Shown: positions 7,169 through 47,000 of the stretch, in pieces
Numbering within the stretch: the first letter of the stretch is position 1
How the letters are laid out: each line of letters begins with the position of its first letter
NCBI GenBank assembly: GCA_040218735.1
Contig: JAVJQW010000023.1
Span: 1 to 64,000, forward strand
Source of the DNA: Deltaproteobacteria bacterium
Lineage (GTDB): Bacteria > Myxococcota > Kuafuiibacteriia > Kuafuiibacteriales > Kuafuiibacteriaceae
Length of the DNA: 64,000 bases
Direction: 5' to 3'
The notes under the pieces: generated by a model
Told to the model about the DNA's origin: nothing
Seen by the model: the letters and a program-made list of their open reading frames with translations, nothing else
Database searches by the model: none
Program-made: the position numbers and the translations under genes

Positions 7169-9070
7169 ATGCGTTGGGCCTACGTCCTGGTCGCGTTTGG
7201 ACTGCTTTCGGGCTGCGAACGTGGCCGAACCCGGATCGACCCGCCCGGGCAGCTCGCCCGCGCGCTCGAACGGGTCACCGAGCTCACTGCGACGGCTCAG
7301 CTGCGGCCCGTCGACAGCGCGATGTTCGAGAGCCAGGCGCTCGAGGCCGAGGGGGCGTCCTTCTCCGGCTTCGTGGAGGCGGCCCCCGGCGACTACACGC
7401 TGGAGATCGTGTTCCGCGGTCGCTACGACGGCGCCGGCCCGTACTTCTTGGGGCGGTGGGCGTCGAACCGATTCACCGTCGTGCAGGGCGACGCCGTGAC
7501 CCCGGTCTTCGCCACGCCGCTCGACACGATCGGACGCGACGGCGACGGCGGCGACGACGACGCGGACGGGCTCGGGCTCCTCGACGAGCTGCTCTTCGGC
7601 GCCGACATCGCGGACGACGACACCGACGACGACGGCATCCCGGACGGCGATGACTGTCGACCTACGCAGACCAGCGCCGGCCGCGCCGCGCGCACCGGAC
7701 AACTCGAAGACTGCGACGGCGACGGCGAGTTACGGCCGGACCGCCCCGTGGGCACCGCGGGCCGCGACTGCAACGACGAGGACGCGACGATCAACCCCGC
7801 CGCCGAGGATGTCTGCGGCGACGGCATCGATCAGGACTGCAACCCCGAGACCTGCGCGGACGAGTCGCGACCGGTGATCACGATCCTCGAACCCGACGAC
7901 GGTGAGTCCGTCGGGTGCTCGCGCGACGTCCGCGCTCGGATCCAGTCCGAGCTCCCGATCGCCAACGCCGAGGTGGTGTTCCTCGACGGCGCGAACGTCG
8001 TCGACCGGATGACGATGCAGGCGAACGGAGACGTCTACGCGTCGCCGCCGCTCGCGGACACCTCGGTGTTCCTCGACCTCGGCGCGCAGAGCTACGAGGT
8101 CCGCGCGACGGACATGCGCGGGCGGACGTCGACCGCCGCGCGCACGATGGACCTCGCCTTCGAAGTGCCCGTCGCGACGATGACGCCGAACATGGTCGGG
8201 TACCGCGACGCGCCGTTCGACGTCACGGTCCAGGCGAGCGCGGCGGCGGGGATCACTTCGATCGTCCTGTACCGAGCGCCGGTGATGGACGACGAGGTGA
8301 ACCTCAGCGACGCAACCGAAGTTGCGCGCACGACATCGAGCCCGCTGACGACGACGATCGATCCCACGATGCTGCCGGACGGCGCGTACGCGTTGGTGCC
8401 GGTCGTGACCGACGCGGTGGGGAACGTGCTCGAAGCCGACGGCGACTTCATCCCCGACACCCGCATGGACGGCACACTCGGCTCCGACGCCGTCTACTGG
8501 TGCTTGTTCGACTCCGGCGAGGACAACGTCCCGGTGCGGTTGTTGATCGTCGGCGCCCCTTCCCTCGCGCCGGCGAAGATGCGCGACCACCTCCAAGAGG
8601 CGATCGACCTCGCGGCAGCGCGCGATCCGGTGGCGGACCTCGTCGAGGTACGAGGCTTCGGCTTGCGCTCGGACGGGACCGTCCCGCTCGACGAGCGCAC
8701 CGGCGACGGCGGGAAGTGGTGGCGCTACGTGTTCTTCAACTTCACGGACGACCGTCGCATCGAAGTGACGTGGTTCTCGCTCGCGGACGGCGAGGACAGC
8801 CCGGTCGTCGAGGTGACGGAGAACGATCAATTCGGCTTCGCGTACGCGCCGTTCGGCGACATCTCGGCGCTCGAGGACAGCGACGTCATCGCCGCGGCCT
8901 ACGAGGCCGCGAACGGGTGCGGCATGTTCACGGGCTCGGAAGACGACGACATGCGCTACGAGAACGACGACCCGTTCTCGACGAACGACGTCGTCTACGT
9001 CACCGCCCAGGACCTCACCTGGAAGGCGACGGCGGCGACGCCGATCACCGAGATCTTCATGTGTGAATGA
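7169..9070 (+). CDS. Lipoprotein with Asp-rich TSP3-like and MopE-type metal-binding repeats and Ig-like domains
   Basis: Lipobox LLSGC; DDDADGL, DTDDDGIPDGDD; DCNDEDATINPAAEDVCGDGIDQDC. Confidence 0.75.
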   Translation: MRWAYVLVAFGLLSGCERGRTRIDPPGQLARALERVTELTATAQLRPVDSAMFESQALEAEGASFSGFVEAAPGDYTLEIVFRGRYDGAGPYFLGRWASNRFTVVQGDAVTPVFATPLDTIGRDGDGGDDDADGLGLLDELLFGADIADDDTDDDGIPDGDDCRPTQTSAGRAARTGQLEDCDGDGELRPDRPVGTAGRDCNDEDATINPAAEDVCGDGIDQDCNPETCADESRPVITILEPDDGESVGCSRDVRARIQSELPIANAEVVFLDGANVVDRMTMQANGDVYASPPLADTSVFLDLGAQSYEVRATDMRGRTSTAARTMDLAFEVPVATMTPNMVGYRDAPFDVTVQASAAAGITSIVLYRAPVMDDEVNLSDATEVARTTSSPLTTTIDPTMLPDGAYALVPVVTDAVGNVLEADGDFIPDTRMDGTLGSDAVYWCLFDSGEDNVPVRLLIVGAPSLAPAKMRDHLQEAIDLAAARDPVADLVEVRGFGLRSDGTVPLDERTGDGGKWWRYVFFNFTDDRRIEVTWFSLADGEDSPVVEVTENDQFGFAYAPFGDISALEDSDVIAAAYEAANGCGMFTGSEDDDMRYENDDPFSTNDVVYVTAQDLTWKATAATPITEIFMCE

Positions 9071-9871
9071 TCAGCGCAGGTCGGTGAGCAGGTGCTCCGC
9101 GAGGTTGCCGGACGGCGACAGCGCGTAGACCCGAGCGCCATCGACGAACGTGCGCATCGAGGGTTGGAGCTCGAGGCCGGGCGTGTCTTCGACGTCGAAG
9201 AGGCAGCGCTCCTGGGTGTCGGCGTCCTCGACGCCGAGGTAGTTGCGCATCCCGCCTTCGAACGCGTCGCGCGCGAAGACATGCATCCACCCCTCGTGGT
9301 CGAAGCCGGAGGTGGGGCCCCACGTGAGGGGCTCGAACGGAACCTCTTCGACCTCAGCGTTGTCCGGCGTGATGCGGTAGAGGGCGCCGAGCTCGTAGAG
9401 CCAGAGTCGATCGCCGTCGTGTGCGATGAAGCGCTCCACGTAGGCGTCGCCCTTGCCCGGGGAGGTGAGCTGCGTGACGAGGTCGAGATCGCGATCGAGC
9501 GTTCGCACCTCGAGCTGGTCGCTGCACACGTACAGTCCGAGCCAGGCGGCGTCGGCGTGGGTGATGCTCTGGACTTCGCAGTCGTCGCGGGGGATCGCGA
9601 GGGCGTCGATCCGATCGCGCGTCTGGGCGTCGAAGCGGACGAGCCAGGGCGTGCCTTCGATGTCGGCGAGGACGCCGATGGTCCCGGCGCCGATCGCGCC
9701 GTCGCGGATGCGTGCGCCTTCGGGGAGGTCGAGGTGATAGGTGGCGTCGTAGTCGAGGGCGAACGCCGCGCAGGGGAGCGGTCGGTCGTCGTGATCGTAG
9801 GGCAGCTCCGTCTCGATCGCGCAGGCGGTCAGGCCGATGGCCATCACGCCGATCCATGTCGTGCGGTACAT
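9071..9871 (-). CDS. Hypothetical lipoprotein, possible beta-propeller
   Basis: Lipobox GLTAC; beta-rich mature region; start could be 9901. Confidence 0.6.
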   Translation of the reverse strand: MYRTTWIGVMAIGLTACAIETELPYDHDDRPLPCAAFALDYDATYHLDLPEGARIRDGAIGAGTIGVLADIEGTPWLVRFDAQTRDRIDALAIPRDDCEVQSITHADAAWLGLYVCSDQLEVRTLDRDLDLVTQLTSPGKGDAYVERFIAHDGDRLWLYELGALYRITPDNAEVEEVPFEPLTWGPTSGFDHEGWMHVFARDAFEGGMRNYLGVEDADTQERCLFDVEDTPGLELQPSMRTFVDGARVYALSPSGNLAEHLLTDLR

Positions 9872-9978
9872 GCCGGTGGTCGTTCGCAAGGTGAGTGCCA
9901 AACCCGTCGCGGGTCGCCAATCGCCGCGGGGGCGCGCGGTGCATGTCAGGAAAGTCAGAGCCGCGGTGGTAGGATGAC

Positions 9979-11931
9979 GTGATGGGCGTCGCGTTGCTCG
10001 TGTTGCTCGCCGCCGCGGCGGCGGACGACGCGGACCGTCCGTACGTCGAGATCCTGGAGAGCACCGGCGCCGTGGACGGTCCCGCCGAGAGCGGGGTGGG
10101 CGTCCCGACTTGGGAGCGCGTGCGGATGGAGCTGCGCGTCGAGAACCGGTTGCAGGTGGACGTGACCGGGCTCGAGCTCGACATCGCGCTCGTCTCCGCG
10201 GCGAAGGACGACGCGCCGAACGTCATCCCCGGGTGGTCGTTTCGCGAGGAGCTCACGGACACGATCGTCGACGCACTCGACACCGCGTACGTGCGCATCA
10301 CGCACCAGCTCCCGGCGCGGCGCACTTCGCCCCCTGCGGACGAGATCGCCTACCGCGTTCGTATCATCAGCTACCGCATGTCGGAGCCGGATCTCGGGAC
10401 GGCGCTCGGCATGTTGGGGAGCAGTCGTGCGGCGGATCAGCGCGCGGCGCTGCGGAGCTACGGCGCCGACTTCGAACCGACGGCGCGCGCGCGTCACGCG
10501 GAGGAGCTCGCGATCGCGATCGGTACGATGCCCGCGAAGCCCGCCGCGTCGGACGCGCTCCGCTTGTTGTTCGCCGTGCGGGCGTTGGGGGCGCTCGGCG
10601 CGCGGCGGCACGTCGCGGATCTGCTCTACCTCCCCGAGCGACTCGAACGCGAGGTGTGGGGGCGCGCGGTGCTCGACCTCGCGGAGCGGATGATCGACGC
10701 GTCCGAGAAGGACGAGCCGCGGCTCTCGGTGCTGCCGTCCTGGGCGCGCAACAAGTCGGACTTCCTCACCGTGCGCGCGGAGGACGCGCTGGAGGATGCG
10801 GTGCGGGAAGCGATCCTGCGCATGGGCGACGCCGCGGTGCCCGCGCTGTTGCTCTCCTCGCTCCAGGCGCCCGAGCCGGCCGTGCGTTCGCGCGCGAAGC
10901 GCCTGCTGCACGCGTTGGGGCGCTCGACGGTGCGGTCGCAACTCACCTTGCGAGACCGCGACTCTCGGCTCGCGGTGATCCAGGTGCTCGGTCGTTCGTC
11001 GAGCTCCGAGCCCGTGCCGGCGTTGGTGGAGCTCGCGCGCGGGCGGGACAAGGCGCTCGCGAAGGCGGCGCGCGCAGCGTTGTTGTCGATCGGGCCGGCG
11101 GCGGTGGAGGGGATCGTCGAAGCGCTCGGCGCGCCGGGCGACGAGGACATCGTCGACACCCTCGTACAGATCGGGCGTCAGCACCCGAAGGCGATCCTGG
11201 AGATCGTGCGTCGGTACGGCGTGACGATCGAGCGGAGCGAGGTCGAGCACGTCGTGGAGCGCCTGCATGCCCACTTGCGCGACGCGCGGCGCGCGCGCCT
11301 GCGCGCGGAGATCGAGCTCGCGCTCGACGCGGGCCGAGAGGGGCGCTACGCGGAGTGCTTCGCGCAGCTGGATCGGGTGTTCGCGCAGGACGAGGCGCTC
11401 TACATGAGCTACGCCGAACCGATCGCCGAGCAGTACCTCGCACGCGCCGAACGTCTGCTCGCGCGCGGCGACTACGACGCCGCCGTCGATACGTTGCGCG
11501 CCGGGCTCACGGTTCAGGACACCCCCAAGGCGCGCGCGCTGCTGTCCCGGGCGCGCATCGCGCTCGTGCGAGGCTACGTGGAGCTCGGTGAGCTGTCGCG
11601 CGCCCAGGAGGTCCTGGCCCAGGTCGAGGAGCGCACCGACGAGCGACGCACGGCGGAGGGGCTCCTCCTCGCGGCGAGCGCCAAAGAGGCCGTGCGACGC
11701 GGCGAGCTGTCACGCGCGCGGCAGCTCTTGGATCGCGCGCGCGCGATCGATCCGGACGACCCGGCGCTGACGCTGGTGGACCGGAGGCTGATGCTCTCCG
11801 AGAACATCTCGGTGGTGATCGTGCTGGGGCTGCTGATCCCGGCCGCGATCCTCGCGCTGGTGCTGTGGGTGAGGAAGCGCCTGGAGTCGGCGAGGATGCG
11901 AAGGTTGGAGAGGCAGATTGATGGGGGTTAG
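9979..11931 (+). CDS. Secreted or membrane-anchored HEAT/TPR-repeat protein
   Basis: Signal peptide; HEAT-like MGDAAVPALL, IGPAAVEGIVEAL; TPR-like ARGDYDAAVDTLRAGL; C-terminal TM helix. Confidence 0.75.
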   Translation: MMGVALLVLLAAAAADDADRPYVEILESTGAVDGPAESGVGVPTWERVRMELRVENRLQVDVTGLELDIALVSAAKDDAPNVIPGWSFREELTDTIVDALDTAYVRITHQLPARRTSPPADEIAYRVRIISYRMSEPDLGTALGMLGSSRAADQRAALRSYGADFEPTARARHAEELAIAIGTMPAKPAASDALRLLFAVRALGALGARRHVADLLYLPERLEREVWGRAVLDLAERMIDASEKDEPRLSVLPSWARNKSDFLTVRAEDALEDAVREAILRMGDAAVPALLLSSLQAPEPAVRSRAKRLLHALGRSTVRSQLTLRDRDSRLAVIQVLGRSSSSEPVPALVELARGRDKALAKAARAALLSIGPAAVEGIVEALGAPGDEDIVDTLVQIGRQHPKAILEIVRRYGVTIERSEVEHVVERLHAHLRDARRARLRAEIELALDAGREGRYAECFAQLDRVFAQDEALYMSYAEPIAEQYLARAERLLARGDYDAAVDTLRAGLTVQDTPKARALLSRARIALVRGYVELGELSRAQEVLAQVEERTDERRTAEGLLLAASAKEAVRRGELSRARQLLDRARAIDPDDPALTLVDRRLMLSENISVVIVLGLLIPAAILALVLWVRKRLESARMRRLERQIDGG

Positions 11932-36868: not shown

Positions 36869-37543
36869 TTACTGCTCGTCCACGCAGAGGCGCGCGATGC
36901 GCTCACGGACGTGCTCCGTCTCGTCGTCGAACGTGAACTGAATCCCGAGCCAGCGTGTGTCGTGCTGGGAGCGGCTCGCCGCTTTCGCTCGACGCACGGT
37001 GCCGTCGACCTTCGTGAAACGCGGCTCGCCCGGGAGCTGGAGCATGAGCTCCACTTGGTCACCGACCGCGAAGTCGCGGCCGGGTGACTTCACGACGAAG
37101 GCACAGCCACCGCGCGACAGGTCGCGGACGGTGCCCTGCAAGCGTTGCTCGCCGATCTTCAGCGCGCCGCGAACGCAAACCCGAAGTCGCTCGTCCTTTC
37201 GTCGCGCGTACTCCTGAAGGATGTCCGGATAACCGACGAAGATCAGCGTCGCCGGTGACTCGTAGACCAGCTGGATCCGCGTGACGAACCCGAGCTCCCC
37301 CATGCCCGGCGAGTAGCGCGCAACGCACCGCGCCCCCGGGTAGAGCGGCGCGTCCGTGTCGTCCGGGATCTCGAGGAGCAGGTACTCCGACACCTTGTAG
37401 CCCCGGAGCGTCGCAGTGACCTGCGCCGACTCGCCGTGGTCCTCGATCAGGAGCTGCAGCTGGGCGTCCACGACGAGGTGCACCGGACCGCGGTCCTGCA
37501 CCAACGTCACGTCGGACGGCAAACGAGCGGCAGGCAACACCAC
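36869..37543 (-). CDS. YcgR-like PilZ domain c-di-GMP receptor
   Basis: RRKDERL (RxxxR) and DLSRGG (DxSxxG), with an N-terminal PilZN-like region. Confidence 0.85.
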   Translation of the reverse strand: MVLPAARLPSDVTLVQDRGPVHLVVDAQLQLLIEDHGESAQVTATLRGYKVSEYLLLEIPDDTDAPLYPGARCVARYSPGMGELGFVTRIQLVYESPATLIFVGYPDILQEYARRKDERLRVCVRGALKIGEQRLQGTVRDLSRGGCAFVVKSPGRDFAVGDQVELMLQLPGEPRFTKVDGTVRRAKAASRSQHDTRWLGIQFTFDDETEHVRERIARLCVDEQ

Positions 37544-37610
37544 GAGACCAAGAATCGGCGAACCCGGGTCTGACCTTGAGAGGGGGTCTCTGGGTTAGGA
37601 TGGAGCGGTC

Positions 37611-38884
37611 GTGCGTGCGGCCCGAGTCGCCTCGTTCTGGATCGTCGTCACGGCCGCGTGCGGGTCCGAGTCCGATCTGTTCGTGAAACGCGTCTGGGGC
37701 GAATCCGAGGCCGCCATCCTCGTCGCCGTCGCCGAGTCCGGCGAGCGGACGCCGATCGTCGTCGCCGCTTCGGCGGGCGTCCGCGAGGCGACGTTCGAAG
37801 CGGAGGGTGACGTCACCTACTACGCGCAGACCTTCGAAGAGCTCGAAGGTCGGGACGTCTCGCAGTGCACGGTCACGTTCGGCCCCAACGACGACCTCGC
37901 GTTGGGCACCGCGCACCGATCTTGGATCGGCCAGCGCGACGGCGACGCGATTCAGTGGTCCCTCGAAGACGTGCCGCGCGCCTTCGACCTCCGCATTCGC
38001 GGCTGCGAGCGGCCCCGCGGGAGCTGCGACGTGGGGATCGAGCTGTTGGACGGCGGCCCCAGCGTCAGTGGGCTGTTCGCGACCGCGGTGCTCGACGACG
38101 ACACCGCCCTCTTCGCCGGCGCGCGTCGCGGCGACGGCGATATGAGCACCCTCACCATGCGCTACGACCGCGGAACGGTGTCGACGCTCCCTCCCGATCC
38201 GAACCTCATCGGAAAGATCCAAGCCGTCGAGTACGACGGTGACCGCATCATCGCCGCGCAGGGTGATCACCTCCTCCAGCTCGACCGACGGGGGGTCGTC
38301 ACTGCGTCGGTCGCGGTCGGCTTTGCGATCGAAGCCATGGAGATCGGGAGCGACGGTGCGGCGTTCCTGATGTCGTCGGACGGCGAGCTCGCGTTTGTCG
38401 CGCCGGGCACGCTCAGGCCGACCGCCTTCGCACCGCCACGCTACGGCGAGTTGACCGGCGGCGAGGTGAACCTCGACGTCGTCGACGCCGACACCCTCGT
38501 CCTGCTCGGGCCGGACGGGAGTGTGTGGCACTACACCGAAGAGAAGTGGACCTTGCTCCTCGAACGCGTCGAGGCGCGGGTGATCGCCACGGACGGCCGC
38601 GACGTGCTCCTCGCGCGCAACCACGCGTCCGTGCTCATCCACCGCATCGGGGGGTCGGACTGGGAGGGGATCAGCGTCGCGTTCAACCAACAGAACGCCA
38701 TCCACGCCGAAGCGATCGGGGGCGGACGGTTCATCATCACCGGGCAGACCGGCACCGTCATGTACTACGATGGCGCGATGGCCTGCACCGTACCGTCCGC
38801 GACCGATCGGAACATCGAGGACTTCGACCTGAGCCCGAGCGGCGACGTCGCGTTCGCGGTGGGCGAGCACTTCAGCGCGACTGA
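37611..38884 (+). CDS. Lipoprotein with beta-propeller repeats; stop codon apparently out of frame (open frame runs to 39656)
   Basis: Lipobox TAAC; propeller-like motifs end near AFAVGE; downstream translation is antisense shadow of the kinase; TGA at 38882 is one base out of frame. Confidence 0.6.
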
Positions 38885-40682
38885 CCGAGGTCGACGACTC
38901 CGCCGCCGGCGCGAGCCAACGACGCACCGACTCTTCGAGGCGCGGGCGTGCGACGGGTTTCGACAGGAAGTCACACATGCCGGCGTTCTCGCAGCGCACA
39001 CGATCGGCGTCGGTGACATACGCGGTCACCGCGATGACGGGGACCGGCGTCTGGGCAGTGCTCGTGATGCGCTCCGTCGCCTCCCACCCGTTCATCACCG
39101 GCATCTCGCAGTCCATGAAGATCGCGTCGTAGTCCGCGGCGGCCGCGCGCTCGACGGCCTCCTGTCCGTTGGTCGCTTCGTCGACCTCCAGGCCGAGCTT
39201 CTTCAACATCCGCGACAGGACCATGCGGTTGACGCGGTTGTCGTCGACCACGAGCACGCGGCGCCCACCGACGGCGCTGACCGGCGGCGGCGGTGGCGCT
39301 TCGACGATGCGCGCGGGCACGCGGACGGTGATCGTCGTCCCGAGGCCGAGCTTCGACTGGATCTCGATCGTACCCCCCATTCGACGGAGGACCCGATCCA
39401 CCATCGCGAGGCCGAGCCCCGCCCCGCCGAACGACCGCGTCGCCGCGTCGTTGACCTGGTAGAAGAGGTCGAAGATTCGCTCGAGGTATTCGTCCGGGAT
39501 CCCGATCCCGGTGTCACGCACCGTCAGCAGCATGCCTCCGCCGTCCGCGCTCAAGCGCACGTGCACGTGACCCTCCGGCGTGAACTTGACGGCGTTCTCG
39601 ATGAGTCGCTCCGCGACGATGAGCAACCCGTCGGCATCACAACGCACCCGATGTGACAGCTCGGGTGCGACGTCGAAGCAAAACTCCAGGTTGCACCGCT
39701 GCGCAGCCCGGCGTGTCCGGTCGATGACCGGCGCGAGGTGTTTCTCGACGCTCACCTCGCCAATAGGAACGACGAGGTCCTCGGTTCCGCCGTCGGCAAG
39801 CGCGAGAACGTCTTCGATCAGGCGGGTGAGGTTGGCGGCCGAGTCCTCGAGCGCGACGCGGAAGTCTTCGCGAGAGATGGAGTCCGCTTCATCGAGCACG
39901 CCGCTCATCGAGCCTACGATTCCATTGAGTGGAGTCCGGAGCTCATGGCTCATGATCGAGAGGAAACGACGCTTCACCTCCAGGGCGCGCTGCATCTCCT
40001 CGTGGGCGACCTCGAGGCGACGGTATTGTGCGTTGAGCTCTTCTTGCTGACGGTTGAGCTCCTCGAGCGCCGCCTGGCCTGCGAACAGCGCTCGGAAGGC
40101 GCGACGGATGCGCGCCGGTAGCGTTTGTGACTGCGGCGGACGAACGAGGTACGTGCCGCGTCGGTCGTCGAGCTCGAAGTGCACCTCGGCGTCGGGGAGG
40201 CCCAGCAAACGTGGGAGCGCCTGCAGGATGCCGCGTGTGATGAGAAAGAATCCGACCGACGTTCGGTAGGGCTCCGGGATCTCGACGACGATGCGGATCT
40301 CGCCGTTCGGGAGCTCCGTCTGTTCGGAGCGAAGGTTGCTGAACGTGCGCTTGAACCCGAAGCCGTGGCCCACCGTGTAGAGCACCTTCGGGCTCGCCAC
40401 GACGGAGAGCACGCGGAGCATCCCGCCGAACTTCGGCAGCTTGAGCGCGGAGCGCCCGCACTCTTCGAGGGAGATCTTCCCCGCGGCTGCGACCGCCATA
40501 CGGTCGTAGAGCACACAGGCTTCCTCCCAGCTGAATCGCTTCGGGCGGTCGAGGAGGTGCTCATAGCCCTCGAGGATGGCGGCCTCGGAGCCGAGCAGCA
40601 GCTCCCCGCACACGAGGAACGGTTCGAGCGCCTCGCCGGCGACCTCCTCGCCTCCGTGGTGGACCGTGACCTCAGACCCCAT
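38872..40682 (-). CDS. Hybrid sensor histidine kinase (N-terminal sensor, HisKA, HATPase, REC); stop apparently out of frame (open frame runs to 37059)
   Basis: MSHELRTPLNGI, ENAVKFT, DTGIGI, GAGLGL, LVVDDN, FMDCEMP, FLSKP. Confidence 0.88.
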
Positions 40683-40731
40683 CTCGTATCTGATGTCGGA
40701 CGCCCTGCGACGAAATTCAGTGGCCGGGCGA

Positions 40732-42360
40732 TCAGGCGCGCATCGCCGACACCCGCCCGTTGGCGTTGTGGAGCCGACCGCGGTGTGGCGCAGTGACCAC
40801 CCACTCGTACCAGGCGCGCCGGGTGCGGGAGCGCCGGAAGAGCTCGACGCGGAGCGTAGACGCCTCGCGAATCCCGAAGGGTTGCGCAAACGGCAGGTAC
40901 ATCGGACTCCAGCTGCGCATCCCGGGCGTCGCGTCTTGGGGGACGATCGACAACCGAACGCCGTCGGCGAGCTCCATATCGAAGAACGCGCCGAGACCGT
41001 GGGCGACGCCGTCTGCCTCGATTTGAAACGCTACGGCCGCGTGCTGATCGAGCGGCTCCTCGCCGGGGTGTGTGAAATGAAAGACCGGCTGCGGCGGAGC
41101 GAGGAGACACGCGCGGTCCAGGGTGATCGTGTAGAGCTTTTCGGGCTCCGCCACCGCCATCGCGAGGGACTCGGCGTGCAGCGGAGCGACGTAGCTCGTG
41201 TATGCGCGCGGGATCGAAACGCCGTCCCCCGCGAGGTGTCGTTCGATCGGTCGCAGGCACTCCGGCGACAGCTCGTTGTCACCAAAGCCACCGAGGAGCT
41301 CGCTGACGAGGACGTCGATCGGAGCGTCGGGTACCCAGCTCCGCATGTCCGCGTCGACGACCTTCGCTGCGTTTCTCCACTCGCGTTCGTTGCGCGCGTG
41401 GAGCGTCGCGCGCGCACCGGGGTTCTTCTCGAGCAGGACGAGTCGAATCCTTCGGTTCAGGAACTGCGCGGCGCGAAGGACCTGGTCCACCAACCCACCG
41501 CGCCCCGCCCCCGCGACGACGACGTGTGTGTCGTCCGGGCGATCACGAAGCACGGCGAGGGCGGCCTCGTGGTACGCGCGGTACTTCACCGGGTCACTCT
41601 CGATCACCTCGTACGTCGCGCTCGGGATGTCGTCGCCGAGGGGCTCGACCGGGATGATCGGGGCGTTGGCAAATGCCGCCGCGTGGTGGTGCTGCGCAGA
41701 CACCCCCGCCCACGCCGCGCGATAGGCTTCGTCGAGGTCGTTGCGCTGCTCGGGGTCCGTGAGCAGCACACGTTCGCCGAAGCTCCGGAACAACCGCTCG
41801 AACGCCGGCCACGCCTTCGACGCGACCACGAGCTCCACCGGCTCGGCGCACCATCGTTCGACGACGCCCTTGGACGGAGGGCGCTTCGTCGCGTCGAGCG
41901 CCACGTGTACGCGCGAGTGATGTGCAAAGAACCACCGCGCGTCGTCGTAGAGCGACCAGCCGGCCTCCGACCACGGGACGAGCAACCAGGCGTGCGCCGG
42001 TCCGCGCTCGATCAGCGACGCGATCGCCGCGAGCTGCGCGGTGGTCGTCTTCTTCGACAGCGGTAGCATCACCGCGGGGAGGCCGAGGTACACCGCGCGC
42101 TCCACCTGCGCTTCGATCGACTGCCCGGGCGCGATCGCACCGACGATGCGCCGACGCCAGGTCGCCGCGTCGAGCTCTCGGTCGTGATAGGCGGTCGAGG
42201 CGAGGTCGATGAGCGCGAGCTCCCCCCCGAGGCGCGCGACCTGGTTCAGCCCTACCTGCAGGCCGTGGTCGAGGCCGACCTGGACGACGTAGGTGAGGCG
42301 ACGGAGATCGGGCTGGGTGAGGCGCGCGTAGAGACGCGCCATGTCCTCGGAGCTGGTCAT
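40732..42360 (-). CDS. PRMT5/Skb1/Hsl7-like protein arginine N-methyltransferase
   Basis: AVYLGLPAVMLPL, ERWCAEP, TYEVIESDPVKY, VAGAGRGGLV, LEKNP, ADMRSW, VSELLGGFGDNELSPECL, GVSIPRAYTSY, PGMRSWSP, WYEW, HNANGR, collinear with eukaryotic PRMT5. Confidence 0.9.
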   Translation of the reverse strand: MTSSEDMARLYARLTQPDLRRLTYVVQVGLDHGLQVGLNQVARLGGELALIDLASTAYHDRELDAATWRRRIVGAIAPGQSIEAQVERAVYLGLPAVMLPLSKKTTTAQLAAIASLIERGPAHAWLLVPWSEAGWSLYDDARWFFAHHSRVHVALDATKRPPSKGVVERWCAEPVELVVASKAWPAFERLFRSFGERVLLTDPEQRNDLDEAYRAAWAGVSAQHHHAAAFANAPIIPVEPLGDDIPSATYEVIESDPVKYRAYHEAALAVLRDRPDDTHVVVAGAGRGGLVDQVLRAAQFLNRRIRLVLLEKNPGARATLHARNEREWRNAAKVVDADMRSWVPDAPIDVLVSELLGGFGDNELSPECLRPIERHLAGDGVSIPRAYTSYVAPLHAESLAMAVAEPEKLYTITLDRACLLAPPQPVFHFTHPGEEPLDQHAAVAFQIEADGVAHGLGAFFDMELADGVRLSIVPQDATPGMRSWSPMYLPFAQPFGIREASTLRVELFRRSRTRRAWYEWVVTAPHRGRLHNANGRVSAMRA

Positions 42361-42376
42361 GCGCGGCGAGCGTAGC

Positions 42377-43057
42377 TCAGCGAACGCGAATCGGAGACTT
42401 TTCGTAGCGGGTCAGAACGACCTTCACGTAGCGGCGCGTCTCGGCGAACGGCGGGACGCCGCGGTGTCGGGCGACAGCGGCGGGTCCGGCGTTGTACGCG
42501 GCGACGGCGAGCTTCAGGGAACCGAAGCGGTCGAACATCTTCCGCAGGTACCGCGCGCCGCCCATGATGTTCTGGCGCGGGTCGAAGGCATCGCGCACGC
42601 CGACCTCGGCGGCGGTCGCGGGCATGAGCTGCATCAACCCCCGCGCGCCTGCGCTCGAGACGGCGTTGGGCCGATAACCGGACTCGGTGCGAATGACGGC
42701 GTCGATCAGCGCGGCCGGGAGCCCCGTGGCCCGTGACGCTTCTTCGATGAACGGAGCGAGCGCCGAGTAGTTGGAGCGTGAGGGACCGAGCGTCGCGAAG
42801 TGCGGCTTCTTGCCGGGCGGCTCCATGACGTCCGGCTCGAAGTAGGAGTCCGGCGGCGCACCCGGGCGGACATCGCGTGCGAGCAGGATGCCGAGCGCCT
42901 CGGTCTCGTCCCAGTCCATGAACTCTTCGTAGCCGACGACGATGTCGTCACCCATGACGTCGGCCGCGAAGTTGAGCGCCTCCGCGAGGTCGTTCGCGTG
43001 CGCGACCACGGGGACCGCGGCGAACGTGAAGACCAGCACCGAACGCAGGACGTGCAT
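42377..43057 (-). CDS. Lytic transglycosylase (SLT domain)
   Basis: AVIRTESG, AVSSAGARGLMQLMPAT, AAYNAGP, PPFAETRRYV; signal peptide from ATG 43057. Confidence 0.93.
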   Translation of the reverse strand: MHVLRSVLVFTFAAVPVVAHANDLAEALNFAADVMGDDIVVGYEEFMDWDETEALGILLARDVRPGAPPDSYFEPDVMEPPGKKPHFATLGPSRSNYSALAPFIEEASRATGLPAALIDAVIRTESGYRPNAVSSAGARGLMQLMPATAAEVGVRDAFDPRQNIMGGARYLRKMFDRFGSLKLAVAAYNAGPAAVARHRGVPPFAETRRYVKVVLTRYEKSPIRVR

Positions 43058-43153
43058 CGTCTCGATAGGGTTGTCGGCAACCCGTCCTTCGAGGTTGCGC
43101 CAAAAAGATCGGTTGCGCCAGGGGGCGCCGTGGGGGTGTATGGGGGCGTTCTC

Positions 43154-44005
43154 GTGGGCACGCACCACCTCGTACAGCTCGGGCCCGATCATGCAGAGAT
43201 CGCGCTCGCTTACTGCCAACGGCGCCCGCATCGCACGACGTTCCTGGCGGGGTGGATTCAGGACGGAGGTTTGTCCGAAGACCCGCGTGCGCCGCGCGCG
43301 TGGCTGTTCGCCGACATCGACGACGAGGGCGCCATTCAGGGCCTCGTCTACATCTCCGACACGGGCATCGTGCTCCCGGTCTCCTCCCAGGCGGACGGGT
43401 TGGACGGCCTCGTGGAGATCGCGCGCCGAAACCCGACGGCGGTGCGGGTGATCGTCGGCGAGCGCACGTTGGTCGCTTCGCTGTGGCGACGCATTCAGCC
43501 GTTCGGCTTCACGGCGCGGATCGACCGCAACCAGCTCGGCTACTCCGTGAGCGCCGGGAGCTTCGCCGACACCACTTCACACACCCTCGTCCGCGCGAGC
43601 GACACACACCTCGATCAGCTCGTCGAAGCCTCCGCCGCGATGGCACGCGAAGAGGCGCGCGACGATCCGCAGTCGCGGAACCCGGCGCTGTTCCGCTCGC
43701 GCATTCACGATCGTGTGAAGCGCGGGCGTGACTTCCTCTTCGAGGAGGGCGGGCGCGTCACGTTCAAGTGCAACGTGTCGGCGCTGTCCAAGGTCGGCGG
43801 ACAGATCGAGGGCATCTACACCGTCCCGACGCGGCGCCGCACGGGCCTCGGTCGCGCGGGGACCATCGCGGTGACCGCTTGGGTCCTCGAGCGGAGCCCG
43901 CGCGCGTTCCTCCTCGTCAACGACGACAACGAAGCGGCGCTTCGGCTCTACGAGAGCCTCGGTTACGAGAAGCGGTTGGAGAGCCGGACGATCTTCGTCA
44001 AGTGA
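43154..44005 (+). CDS. GNAT family N-acetyltransferase
   Basis: QIEGIYTVPTRRRTGLG, LLVNDDNEAALRLYESLGY; start uncertain. Confidence 0.85.
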   Translation: MGTHHLVQLGPDHAEIALAYCQRRPHRTTFLAGWIQDGGLSEDPRAPRAWLFADIDDEGAIQGLVYISDTGIVLPVSSQADGLDGLVEIARRNPTAVRVIVGERTLVASLWRRIQPFGFTARIDRNQLGYSVSAGSFADTTSHTLVRASDTHLDQLVEASAAMAREEARDDPQSRNPALFRSRIHDRVKRGRDFLFEEGGRVTFKCNVSALSKVGGQIEGIYTVPTRRRTGLGRAGTIAVTAWVLERSPRAFLLVNDDNEAALRLYESLGYEKRLESRTIFVK

Positions 44006-47000
44006 CCGGCGGCGTGAGCCGTCGGATGAGCGCGGCGAGGTGCTCGTCGTCGAAACGCCCCGCCTCGAGCAGCGCCGCGGCGAGCGCGCGCATGACGACG
44101 ATCGTGTCCTCGTCGTCCAGGGCAGCGCCGGCGGCGAACTGTTCGACGAGCGCGCGCACGTGCTCCCCGGTCGGCGGCCCCTCCGCGACCTCCGCGAGCT
44201 CGATGTCCTCCGACGCGTCGGGGAGGTCGTCCGCGTCGGACGGCGCCTCGACCAGCGCTTCGGCGGGCAGCGGCACGGGTGCGTCGGGATCCAGCACGCG
44301 CTCGGCGTGCGCGAAGGCGTCCGCCCCGAGCGGGAGCGGCGCGTCGCCCGCGTTCGGCTCCGCGTTGATGAAGGCGTCTTCGCCGAGCGGGCGCGGCGCG
44401 TCCGGCGACGCGGCGGCGGCGTCCGGCTCCGCGTGCACGAAGGCGTCCGCGCCGAGCGGGCGCGGCGCGTCCGTCGAAGCAGCGGCGGCGTCCGGCTCCG
44501 CGTGCACGACGGCGTCCGCGCCGAGCGGGCGCGGCGCGTCCGTCGACGCGGCGTTTTCGTTCGGCTCCCCGCGACCGAGCGCGGGCGACGCAGCGGCGGC
44601 CACGTCCGGCTCCGCTTGAACGAAGTTGTCCGCGCCGAGCGGGCGCGGCGCGTCCGCGTCGTGCGGGAGCGAAGCGGCGCCCTTGGAGGGCGGGTCCGGA
44701 AGCGTCGCCACGTCGGCGGGCGGCGGCACGTCCCGGCGCGGGGCGTCCTCGTCCGCGGCGTCGTGGGACGCTGCCTCGAGCGCCGAGGTGTCGTGGGCAT
44801 CGGCCGACTCGCTTGCGATCGGCGCCGAGGCGTCGAGGGACGCCGCTTCGGGCGCCGAGGTGTCGTGGGCCTCGGCCGGCGCGTGGGCGTTCGCCGCCGA
44901 GGCGTCTAGGGACGCTGCTTCGGGCGCCGAGGTGTCGTGGGCCTCGACCGGCGCGTGGGCGCTCGGCGCCGAGGCGTCGTGGGACGCTGCCTCGGGCGCC
45001 GAGGTGTCGTGGGCATCGGCCCGCGCGTGGGCGCTCGGCGCCGAGGCGTCGTGGGCCTCGGCCGACTCGCTCGCGATCGGTTCGGGGGGATCCGAGCGCG
45101 GCCCCTCGCCGTCGGCAGCGACTTCGGCCGCGACCGGCGCGAGCGCCTCCGGCGTGCCGTCATGACCACCCGGGGGCTCGTTGTGCAACGCGAGGGAGGC
45201 CCCGTCATCCGCCGAATCATCGTCGGCCCCCGCAGCCGCGGCCGACTCTGCGCCGACGTCGAGTGGGCTCGGCTCGGCGCCCGCGCCGCCGCGCGACGGT
45301 TCCGCGCCGACGTCGGCGAGCGCGCGAACGACCGCCGCGTCGACGTCCCCGGGCGCGGCGATCTCTGCCTCGTTGGACGCTGGCGCCCCGGCCGAAGGCC
45401 GCTGCACGCGGTCGACCGTCACCGTGTTCGCCAAGTCTGGCGTAACGCGTTCTGCAGACACGGTGCTCGCCAGGTCCGCCGGCACCTCGGGCACCGCGTC
45501 CGCGGGCGGGACCTCCGCCGAGCCACCGAACTGCGGCGAGCTCGTCGCGCCGCCATCGTCGCCCGGCGCGCCGATCATCTCGCCCGGCGCACCGAACAGG
45601 CCTTCGGGCACCTCGGCGTCGACCGTCTGCGTTCCGACCTCGGGCGAAGCGTCGACGGTGTCGACGCCCTGCGGCTCCGGCTCTGCGATCATCGTCGGCA
45701 GCGCGCTGTCCGCGGGCTCGGGGATCTCGAAGTCTTCGGTCGGGGCTCCGGTCGGCGCCGACGTCGGCGTCGAGCTCGAGCCCCAGGACAACGCGGGATC
45801 GAGGAGGTCACCCCAGCTCGGCCCCGTATCGACGTCCTGGGCCGCCGGCTCGGGCGCCGTCGGCTCGGGGATGCTCGTCGGCGCCTCATCGACGGTGCCG
45901 TTCGTCGCGCCGCGCGGCTCGTCGACCCCGGCGAACGCGCCCAGCGGCTCCGGCGGTGGGAACGCGTCGTCGTCGCCCGGCGCCTCGGGCGCGACGCCCG
46001 GGTCGGTCGAGATTCCGGCGAGCGCCGCGTCGACCGCCGCGTTGGACGACTCCGCCTCGGACGTCAGGCCCGCGAAGGCCTCGTCGATCGCGACGTCCGC
46101 GGGATCCCGCGACGACGCATCACCGACGAACGGGGAGGACGCAGACAGACCGGACTGCTGCGTCGCCTGTTCGGCGAGGGGCGGCGGCGCCGATCGGACC
46201 TCTTCGTCGAACGCGGCGGCGAGCGCGTCGTCGAGGTTCACCTCCGGCGGACGATGCACGGCGTCGACGAGCTCGTTGACCGCCGGGAACGCGCCGGACT
46301 CGACGACGTCCTCCGCGATGAGGATGTCGTCCGACGTCTCGCCGGAGGACAGCGGGAGGAGGTCCTTCGACCCCATCGACTGCATCCGCGACGCCGGCAG
46401 CGGCGTCTCGCCCATCGCAACGGAGAGCGCAGCGGCGATGTCGGCGGTCGACTGCCCCATCGATGGCGACACGCCGCGCGGCGGCGTGGAAAACGCCGAT
46501 GCCCGTTCGACGGGCCCCGAGACCGGGCGCCCCTGGATGACGGGGATGTCGCTCGAAGGCTTGGGCGCCTCACCGTAGTGACGCGCGAGCGCGAGCTCCA
46601 TCTCCGTCTCGCCCGCGAGCATCCACCGCACGCGGGTGTTCGTTCCCACGACGGCCCGCAGCGCTTGCAGCGCCGTCTTGTCGAGCGGATCGGAGGTGGC
46701 GACATAGAGACAGTCGCGGCTGTCTTCGCGCTGGCGCGCGATCGGGAGCACGTGATGTTTGAACGCGAGCGCGGCCGGCACGAGCGCGAGCACGCGCTCG
46801 TGGATCGGCGTCATGATCGGATCACAAGGCTCGATCCCCAGCTGACGAGACAGCGCGTGGACGAGGCGCTCCTCGGTGATGACCCCCGCACGAACGAGGA
46901 TCTTGCCCAGGCGCATGCCGGATCGCTGTTGCTCTTCGAGCGCGGACTCGAGCTGAGCCGCGTCGATGAAACCCATGTCGATCAGGAGCGAACCGAGCTG

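Follow-up and report, generated by a model that had tools for sequence, protein, structure and literature searches.

The first 64,000 nucleotides of contig JAVJQW010000023.1, hereafter the window, belong to a bacterial genome of the phylum Myxococcota (assembly GCA_040218735.1, here G000) and carry a gene for a compact protein arginine methyltransferase 5 (PRMT5). PRMT5 is regarded as an enzyme of eukaryotes, where it is associated with spliceosome assembly, with histones and with a WD40 partner. The product of the gene, P0001, is a true PRMT5 by every tested criterion except the residue at the position of human Phe327; it is bacterial, compact and apparently partner-free, and a full-text literature search found no description of a bacterial PRMT5. 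A first-pass annotation of the window had pointed to a near full-length PRMT5-like protein in a bacterial chromosome: Pfam profiles, the match to human PRMT5, the structural model and the Foldseek search all agree with it.

The open reading frame (ORF) is present as listed in that annotation, which had omitted that it lies on the minus strand; the same interval, read on the plus strand, is not an open frame. Its translation holds AVYLGLPAVMLPL, ERWCAEPV, TYEVIESDPVKY, GAGRG, EKNP, DMRSW, VSELLGGFGDNELSPECL, PGMRSW, WYEW and HNANGR: every motif previously quoted is found, and the motifs align with the named human residues when P0001 is aligned by phmmer to chain 4gqb_A. The three Pfam profiles of the family are all matched above their curated cut-offs: PRMT5 at 1.4e-47 (residues 223-383), PRMT5_C at 3.3e-37 (residues 387-539) and PRMT5_TIM at 5.6e-10 (residues 82-181, profile positions 71-192 of 252). 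P0001 thus has the three-domain order of PRMT5 (PF05185 + PF17285 + PF17286), composed of TIM barrel, Rossmann fold and beta-barrel. No NCBIfam family matches it. Among PDB sequences, phmmer finds human PRMT5 at E=2.8e-78, a match far beyond chance, followed by the proteins of Xenopus (5.8e-71) and C. elegans (1.7e-42). PF05185 alone also scores above cut-off in two control genomes, Bacteroides thetaiotaomicron and Methanocaldococcus jannaschii; by itself it is therefore not specific for PRMT5, and it is the three-domain match that counts.

The residues of the active site are conserved. In the alignment to 4gqb_A, Y250, I253, K259, E311, D338/M339, E354, E363 and S483/W484 of P0001 correspond to human Y324, F327, K333, E392, D419/M420, E435, E444 and S578/W579, and equivalents of human G365-G369 are also present; the pairing of E354/E363 with human E435/E444 is the one proposed in the first reading. 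An excerpt of PMC11650783 gives Glu435/Glu444 as the double-E pair of PRMT5, and also assigns roles to Lys333 and Trp579. Both a 16-sequence alignment (A1) and a 93-sequence alignment (A2) show E354 without variation and E363 with little or none; the motifs binding S-adenosylmethionine (SAM), GAGRG 284-288, E311-K312-N313 and D338-M339-R340, likewise vary little or not at all. Across the 93 sequences of A2, G284, G286, G288, K312, N313, E354 and W484 are invariant, while A285, R287, E311, D338-R340, S353 and E363 are at least 90% conserved. K259 and W484 do not vary across bacterial and eukaryotic rows, and no catalytic residue differs among the 9 full-length bacterial rows. SAM motifs, double-E loop, Ser-Trp loop and an equivalent of Lys333, all features of PRMT5 membership, are therefore found in P0001. 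Human F580, adjacent to the Ser-Trp loop residues, is replaced by Ser.

An AlphaFold2 model of P0001, obtained from A2, has a mean predicted local distance difference test score (pLDDT) of 93.0 and a predicted template modelling score (pTM) of 0.90. In a Foldseek search of the PDB, human PRMT5 chains rank first: 8g1u_E gives E=4e-57, with a TM-score of 0.87 relative to the query (TMq) and 0.78 relative to the target (TMt) over 612 columns, and 4gqb_A a TMq of 0.87. The model superposes over its full length; the first-pass annotation had spoken of TIM-barrel "remnants", too weak a description for what is a complete, minimal barrel. Its strands are formed by residues 23-27, 48-52, 72-75, 96-100, 123-129, 151-156, 175-180 and 197-200, each followed by a helix, and the eight strand-helix units span residues 23-216: with eight strands and eight helices in the model, the barrel is small but complete.

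Compared with human and vertebrate PRMT5 (4gqb, 8g1u), P0001 shows the same domain order, 29% identity over about 612-625 aligned columns and a TMq of 0.87-0.88. It is about 95 residues shorter (542 vs 637 aa), and the residues absent relative to eukaryotic PRMT5 are TIM-barrel loops (alignment A1): the acidic loop, the N-terminal loop and the FLTNKKGFPVLSK stretch of the human protein are missing. An excerpt of PMC11650783 locates in the TIM barrel the groove for the PRMT5 binding motif (PBM) of adaptors; the stretch aligned to FLTNKKGFPVLSK is deleted in the bacterial protein together with other TIM loops. Members of the LSM/Sm family were not found in the G000 genome. Since the TIM loops are absent and an LSM-family protein was not found, the enzyme is predicted to be partner-free; it is not known to have a MEP50/WDR77, pICln or Sm partner. 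With regard to the methylosome, a PRMT5:MEP50 hetero-octamer with pICln, RIOK1 and COPR5 as adaptors, G000 encodes a RIO-domain kinase. The model describes a single chain.

Two other known systems are less similar. C. elegans PRMT5 (3ua3/3ua4) is a member of the family with all three domains (E=1.7e-42), but its rigid superposition is poor (TMq 0.50-0.54, root mean square deviation about 20), indicating a different domain arrangement; the bacterial model is closer to the human one. The C. elegans enzyme was reportedly crystallised without MEP50. Type I enzymes (PRMT1/3/6) share with P0001 the Rossmann and beta-barrel module with its double-E loop; unlike P0001, they have no TIM barrel, and feature a THW loop and a Met at the Phe327 position. 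They cover only the two C-terminal domains of the model (TMq about 0.42-0.45), and provide a very distant outgroup in the tree.

The gene is truly bacterial and chromosomally integrated. It is located 40 kb into a contig of 781,042 nt, in a genome of 11.6 Mb (70 contigs, 96.5% complete, 4.65% contamination, GC 0.688). GC over the gene is 0.67-0.70, similar to that of the flanks, and GC at third codon positions (GC3) is 0.86, with 0.82-0.95 in the neighbours. As previously noted, 16 nt separate it from the upstream ORF and 49 nt from the next ATG (40682). No Shine-Dalgarno-like sequence precedes its own ATG. A scan of 40400-43500 returned no promoter and no terminator, which is uninformative since the genome is GC-rich. 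Besides the two adjoining genes (Table 1), other flanking genes carry Hsp70 (DnaK) and molybdopterin-oxidoreductase (XDH) domains, according to Pfam. The window stretch recurs in sequencing runs of eight studies, among which no RNA dataset is listed, and near-identical DNA is found in sponge, aquaculture, biofloc and biofilm metagenomes. Contigs from four runs were compared: one of 9261 nt (X3) spans 38878-44487 with 62 differences, one of 2858 nt (X2) spans 39867-42724 with 10 differences, and X5 and X10 yield short pieces only. As the X2 and X3 contigs run across, both gene junctions are bridged in two studies distinct from the possible source of the window, and the junction break that a chimera would produce, a concern raised at the outset, is not seen.

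Table 1. Location of the features described in the text. Positions refer to the window, unless a G000 contig is indicated.
Feature	Position	Strand	Basis and remarks
PRMT5-type gene (protein P0001)	40732..42360	minus	542 codons + stop; ORF list, translation
N-terminal compact (beta/alpha)8 TIM barrel	41695..42360	minus	residues 1-222; model
Rossmann-fold SAM-dependent catalytic domain	41212..41694	minus	residues 223-383; Pfam PRMT5 (PF05185) at C9:41212-41694
C-terminal beta-barrel (PRMT5_C)	40744..41202	minus	residues 387-539, includes S483-W484; Pfam 3.3e-37
Double-E loop VSELLGGFGDNELSPECL	41254..41307	minus	residues 352-369 (E354, E363); aligned to human E435/E444
Ile253 codon, position of human Phe327	41602..41604	minus	alignment A1
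Upstream gene, SLT lytic transglycosylase domain	42377..43231	minus	Pfam SLT 2.1e-28; true start probably downstream of 43231
Downstream hybrid histidine kinase/response-regulator gene	37059..40682	minus	Pfam HisKA, HATPase_c, Response_reg; ATG at 40682
Type-I PRMT-like gene, 315 aa	G000 C45:100354-101298 (L116:2355-3299), outside window	minus	double-E loop, THW
R3H-domain protein, (GRGRD)n linker	G000 C39:256233-256916	minus	candidate PRMT substrate
FtsJ-like methyltransferase, RGG tail	G000 C55:3738-5027	plus	candidate PRMT substrate
186-aa protein, eight RG repeats	G000 C35:48181-48738	plus	candidate PRMT substrate
RIO-domain kinase	G000 C18:230409-232379 (L117:910-2880)		RIO1 9.5e-41; about 170-aa ERGGGRERQ-type repeat tail

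The SLT and histidine-kinase neighbours are conserved only in G001, a genome of the same genus, as seen by tblastx of positions 30001-52000 against the loci of the four other genomes holding the gene; there they reach about 64-74%, being about as conserved as the PRMT5-type gene. Other copies likewise have ordinary bacterial genes around them, their contigs being 131 kb, 609 kb and 3.28 Mb long. Pfam shows nothing in common among 10 neighbour ORFs of G010, G004 and G006, where the neighbour domains are HSP20 and NlpC/P60; TetR, beta-lactamase-like, ThiM and ThiC; and Ser/Thr kinase.

Two features of the surrounding DNA are also reported. Around 38879, inside the histidine-kinase ORF, the X2 and X3 contigs hold about 44-46 letters more than the window; these would shift the frame of the long C-terminal part, devoid of Pfam matches, of what is here a 1276-aa ORF, so that the window may carry a deletion or the ORF may have been fused artificially. 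Between 44000 and 46000, GC climbs to 0.76-0.78 within a 1043-aa minus-strand ORF, whose sole Pfam match is MshEN; this GC-rich stretch may be a low-complexity region.

The gene has a narrow distribution among bacteria. In a collection of 5.8 billion proteins, the nearest sequences are 75% and 51% identical to P0001; they are followed by two proteins from metagenome-assembled genomes (MAGs) at NCBI, recorded as "Deltaproteobacteria bacterium, hypothetical protein" (38% and 37%), and then by eukaryotic PRMT5s, at about 30-37%. An exhaustive search of representatives gave 2094 matches at E<=1e-3. Whole-genome searches located a PRMT5 gene in 5 of the 20 genomes of the window's family (G000 itself, G001, G004, G006 and G010), which is the sole family of its order and class in the genome collection. 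No full-length PRMT5 match was found in the other 381 of the 401 sampled genomes of the phylum, and three further weak matches in this sample are type-I-like genes. A scan of species-genome contigs with P0001 found one locus, on a MAG contig of the same genus. A metagenome scan with alignment A3 found 516 relatives, of which the best 80 were kept; none of the 30 placed from these 80 joined the bacterial clade in a FastTree tree. Viral contigs contributed 63 stretches matching the search pattern and no relatives. Existing database labels for the bacterial members are "hypothetical protein" or, in one JGI record, "protein arginine N-methyltransferase 5".

In a FastTree tree of 262 rows, the bacterial sequences form a 12-row clade with 100% support, corresponding to 11 distinct sequences, since the G010 copy (L004_G010) is identical to the NCBI MAG protein P0005. 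They make up a clade of their own, and the matches of P0001 to the TIM and C-terminal barrel profiles set it apart from generic bacterial class I methyltransferases. The placement of this clade by FastTree as sister to all the rest was not used, as it may reflect long-branch attraction. A second tree was built by IQ-TREE (LG+C20, posterior mean site frequency model) from 41 rows and 323 columns of the catalytic and barrel domains, with three bacterial type-I-like outgroups. The bacterial clade is again monophyletic (96/96), its position relative to eukaryotes being a polytomy. All PRMT5 rows split from the outgroups at 100/99; the outgroup branches are 3.5-6.3 long, and the type-I outgroup failed to resolve the root of PRMT5. 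A full-length tree without outgroup (42 rows, 598 columns), leaving out the partial rows L003_G001C, P0136 and P0235 and the three outgroups, places 23 named eukaryotes all on one side of a branch supported at 98/92, and groups the 9 full-length bacterial rows at 100/98. The 23 eukaryotes are animals, a choanoflagellate, fungi, a plant, a green alga, stramenopiles, a cryptophyte and an amoebozoan; Discoba, Metamonada, Alveolata and Rhizaria are not knowingly among those sampled.

Two origins had initially been envisaged, an unrecognised bacterial PRMT5 lineage and a transfer from eukaryotes to bacteria. The former is borne out, as a monophyletic clade of 11 sequences from one class-level lineage. 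As to the latter, the data do not support recent acquisition from any of the eukaryotic groups sampled, because the bacterial clade falls outside the 23 named eukaryotes (98/92); a transfer between the domains in ancient times, whether into or out of bacteria, is possible.

In the same full-length tree the bacterial clade groups weakly (79/76) with compact PRMT5-like sequences from metagenomes. Two groups, P0230/P0192 and P0195/P0214, lie alongside it outside the 23 eukaryotes: like P0001 they lack the eukaryotic TIM loops and are short (532-613 aa), but they form separate clades and are only 29-33% identical to it. Proteins of this compact kind are P0230, P0222, P0387-P0399 and P0192; P0195 and P0214; and P0243, some of them on contigs of 49-110 kb.

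In an RpoB tree built for 17 genomes, G000 falls on one side of the midpoint root and G006 and G010 on the other, a split mirroring the basal one of the PRMT5 clade; the sister genome of G010 lacks PRMT5. No RpoB was found in G001 or G004, and the tree therefore includes three PRMT5 holders only. This pattern fits the presence of the gene in the common ancestor of the family and numerous later losses; given so few holders, horizontal exchange within the family is also possible.

The gene is under purifying selection: dN/dS between G000 and G001 is 0.257 over 309 codons (residues 234-542) and 0.296 over 244 codons (residues 1-244), values that indicate a functional gene. An uninterrupted frame is seen in 9 full-length bacterial sequences and in the two halves from G001.

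Protein arginine methylation is the most likely activity, because every SAM-binding and catalytic residue is conserved. By inspection, the N-terminus of P0001 contains no hydrophobic signal-like stretch, and a cytoplasmic role, with a cytoplasmic substrate, is therefore likely. A crude scan of the open frames of G000 found RG/RGG-rich regions in several proteins, some of them RNA-related; those listed in Table 1 are leads for possible substrates, not evidence. RIO homologues are present in 7 of the 20 family genomes, in 4 of the 5 PRMT5 holders vs 3 of the 15 non-holders (Fisher p=0.031, the genomes being related and thus not independent). Large genomes carry more accessory genes, a caveat to this co-occurrence.

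G000 contains, in addition, a type-I PRMT-like gene, located outside the window. For the 315-aa product, the match to Pfam PRMT_C is at 7.6e-15 and that to the core of rat PRMT3 at E=5.1e-45. The gene is present in 20 out of 20 family genomes, at 47-88% identity, and in 85 of the 401 phylum genomes at E<=1e-20, some low-scoring matches covering the methyltransferase half only. In NCBI MAG records from Myxococcota and Pirellulaceae, type-I homologues are called "50S ribosomal protein L11 methyltransferase", apparently by misannotation. The organism names attached to homologues of this gene, "Myxococcota bacterium" and "Myxococcales bacterium", agree with the assignment of the phylum to Myxococcota. 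An excerpt of PMC7835222, reporting a screening of orthologues, describes PRMT3 as found "only in eukaryotes".

Taken as a whole, the observations are best explained, with moderate confidence, by a genuine bacterial PRMT5, acting as an arginine methyltransferase without partners and derived from an old inter-domain transfer, in one direction or the other. A single 542-aa chain would bind SAM through GAGRG, E311 and D338-M339, and would clamp the substrate guanidinium between E354 and E363, against W484. Arginines would then be methylated, probably in Gly/Arg-rich stretches of cytoplasmic, RNA-associated proteins. Lacking the TIM loops of the adaptor groove, the enzyme would probably work without the eukaryotic partners. 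The gene would be an accessory one in a single class-level lineage of Myxococcota and, after the transfer, may have been inherited mainly vertically, with repeated loss.

Several results weigh against this explanation. The Phe327 feature, specific for PRMT5, is missing: Ile253 occupies the position in P0001, P0003 and P0004, while the 7 remaining bacterial rows and all 6 eukaryotic rows of A1 retain Phe. According to an excerpt of PMC11650783, this Phe is unique to PRMT5, other PRMTs having a Met. As P0001 is otherwise a complete member of the family, Ile253 concerns product specificity rather than homology, and leaves it uncertain whether mono- or symmetric dimethylarginine would be formed. 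Divergence is fast, PRMT5 being 33-40% identical between genera and RpoB 79-87%. Vertical descent needs many losses, as 15 of the 20 genomes lack the gene. No gene neighbour is kept across genera at the loci of the five holders, so that gene context offers no functional clue. The values of dN/dS, near 0.3, correspond to moderate constraint only. In G006 the copy runs through three frames, -1, -2 and -3 (L014, G006:C1:2365000-2384000, about 8758-10349), which in this 20-contig assembly implies two frameshifts, caused either by decay into a pseudogene or by assembly indel errors. Finally, the RIO kinase is a weak substrate candidate, its RG-rich tail being absent in G001.

Part of these data would also suit a eukaryote-like effector, captured from a eukaryote and either delivered into a host or prey, such as a sponge or a protist, or acting on its proteins: sponge, aquaculture, biofloc and biofilm metagenomes contain near-identical DNA, presence is patchy (5 of 20 genomes), and fast divergence relative to RpoB is typical of interaction genes. 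This is however unlikely, since no signal peptide is visible by inspection of the N-terminus, no secretion-system genes flank the gene in the four contexts examined, and the adaptor-groove loops, by which eukaryotic substrates would be recruited, are missing; nor is a donor identifiable, with the clade lying outside the 23 named eukaryotes (98/92).

It is quite unlikely that the PRMT5 fold has been repurposed, either for methylation of a small guanidino compound or peptide natural product, or as a non-catalytic binder. The double-E loop, K259, W484 and the SAM motifs are invariant across bacteria and eukaryotes, and no biosynthetic cluster genes adjoin; the change of Phe327 to Ile, which would speak for a new role, is confined to the P0001 subclade, the other bacterial subclades keeping Phe. 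The absence of the eukaryotic partner-binding loops fits repurposing as well, as does the genome size of 11.6 Mb, large genomes of Myxococcota being rich in secondary metabolism.

A decaying relic of horizontal transfer, still open here yet functionless, is very unlikely. It would account for the split copy of G006, for the failure to find the gene in 15 of the 20 family genomes and for the high divergence between genera; but dN/dS is 0.26-0.30 over both halves, catalytic residues and reading frame are maintained in all nine full-length sequences, the frame also in both G001 halves, GC3 is fully ameliorated, and the frameshifts of G006 may stem from assembly indels. An assembly chimera or eukaryotic contamination of the genome bin, to which 70 contigs and an estimated contamination of 4.65% might point, is rejected as practically nil, given the bacterial genes 16 and 49 nt away, the uniform GC and host-like GC3, the position 40 kb into a 781-kb contig, the independent X2 and X3 contigs bridging both junctions and the relatives in three other bacterial chromosomal contexts.

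A genuine, partner-free bacterial PRMT5 bears on the origin of the eukaryotic PRMT toolkit, a question connected with proposals of myxobacterial contributions to eukaryogenesis. It is conceivable, if doubtful, that PRMT-type arginine methylation is pre-eukaryotic, and that the compact, partner-free PRMT5 of this Myxococcota class is the ancestral form or its descendant. The type-I PRMT-like gene, which belongs to the core of the class and is common in the phylum, would then be likewise ancestral; a myxobacterium-like donor would have passed the genes to the proto-eukaryote, in eukaryotes the TIM barrel would later have gained its MEP50 and adaptor loops, and the compact metagenomic groups would represent further prokaryotic lineages.

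As a minimal, single-chain enzyme, the bacterial PRMT5 offers a tractable model of the core enzyme without MEP50 and adaptors, and its natural Phe327-to-Ile variant is useful for studies of product specificity. For this bacterial lineage, in which a type-I PRMT-like gene is also part of the core, it points to protein arginine methylation as a means of regulation.

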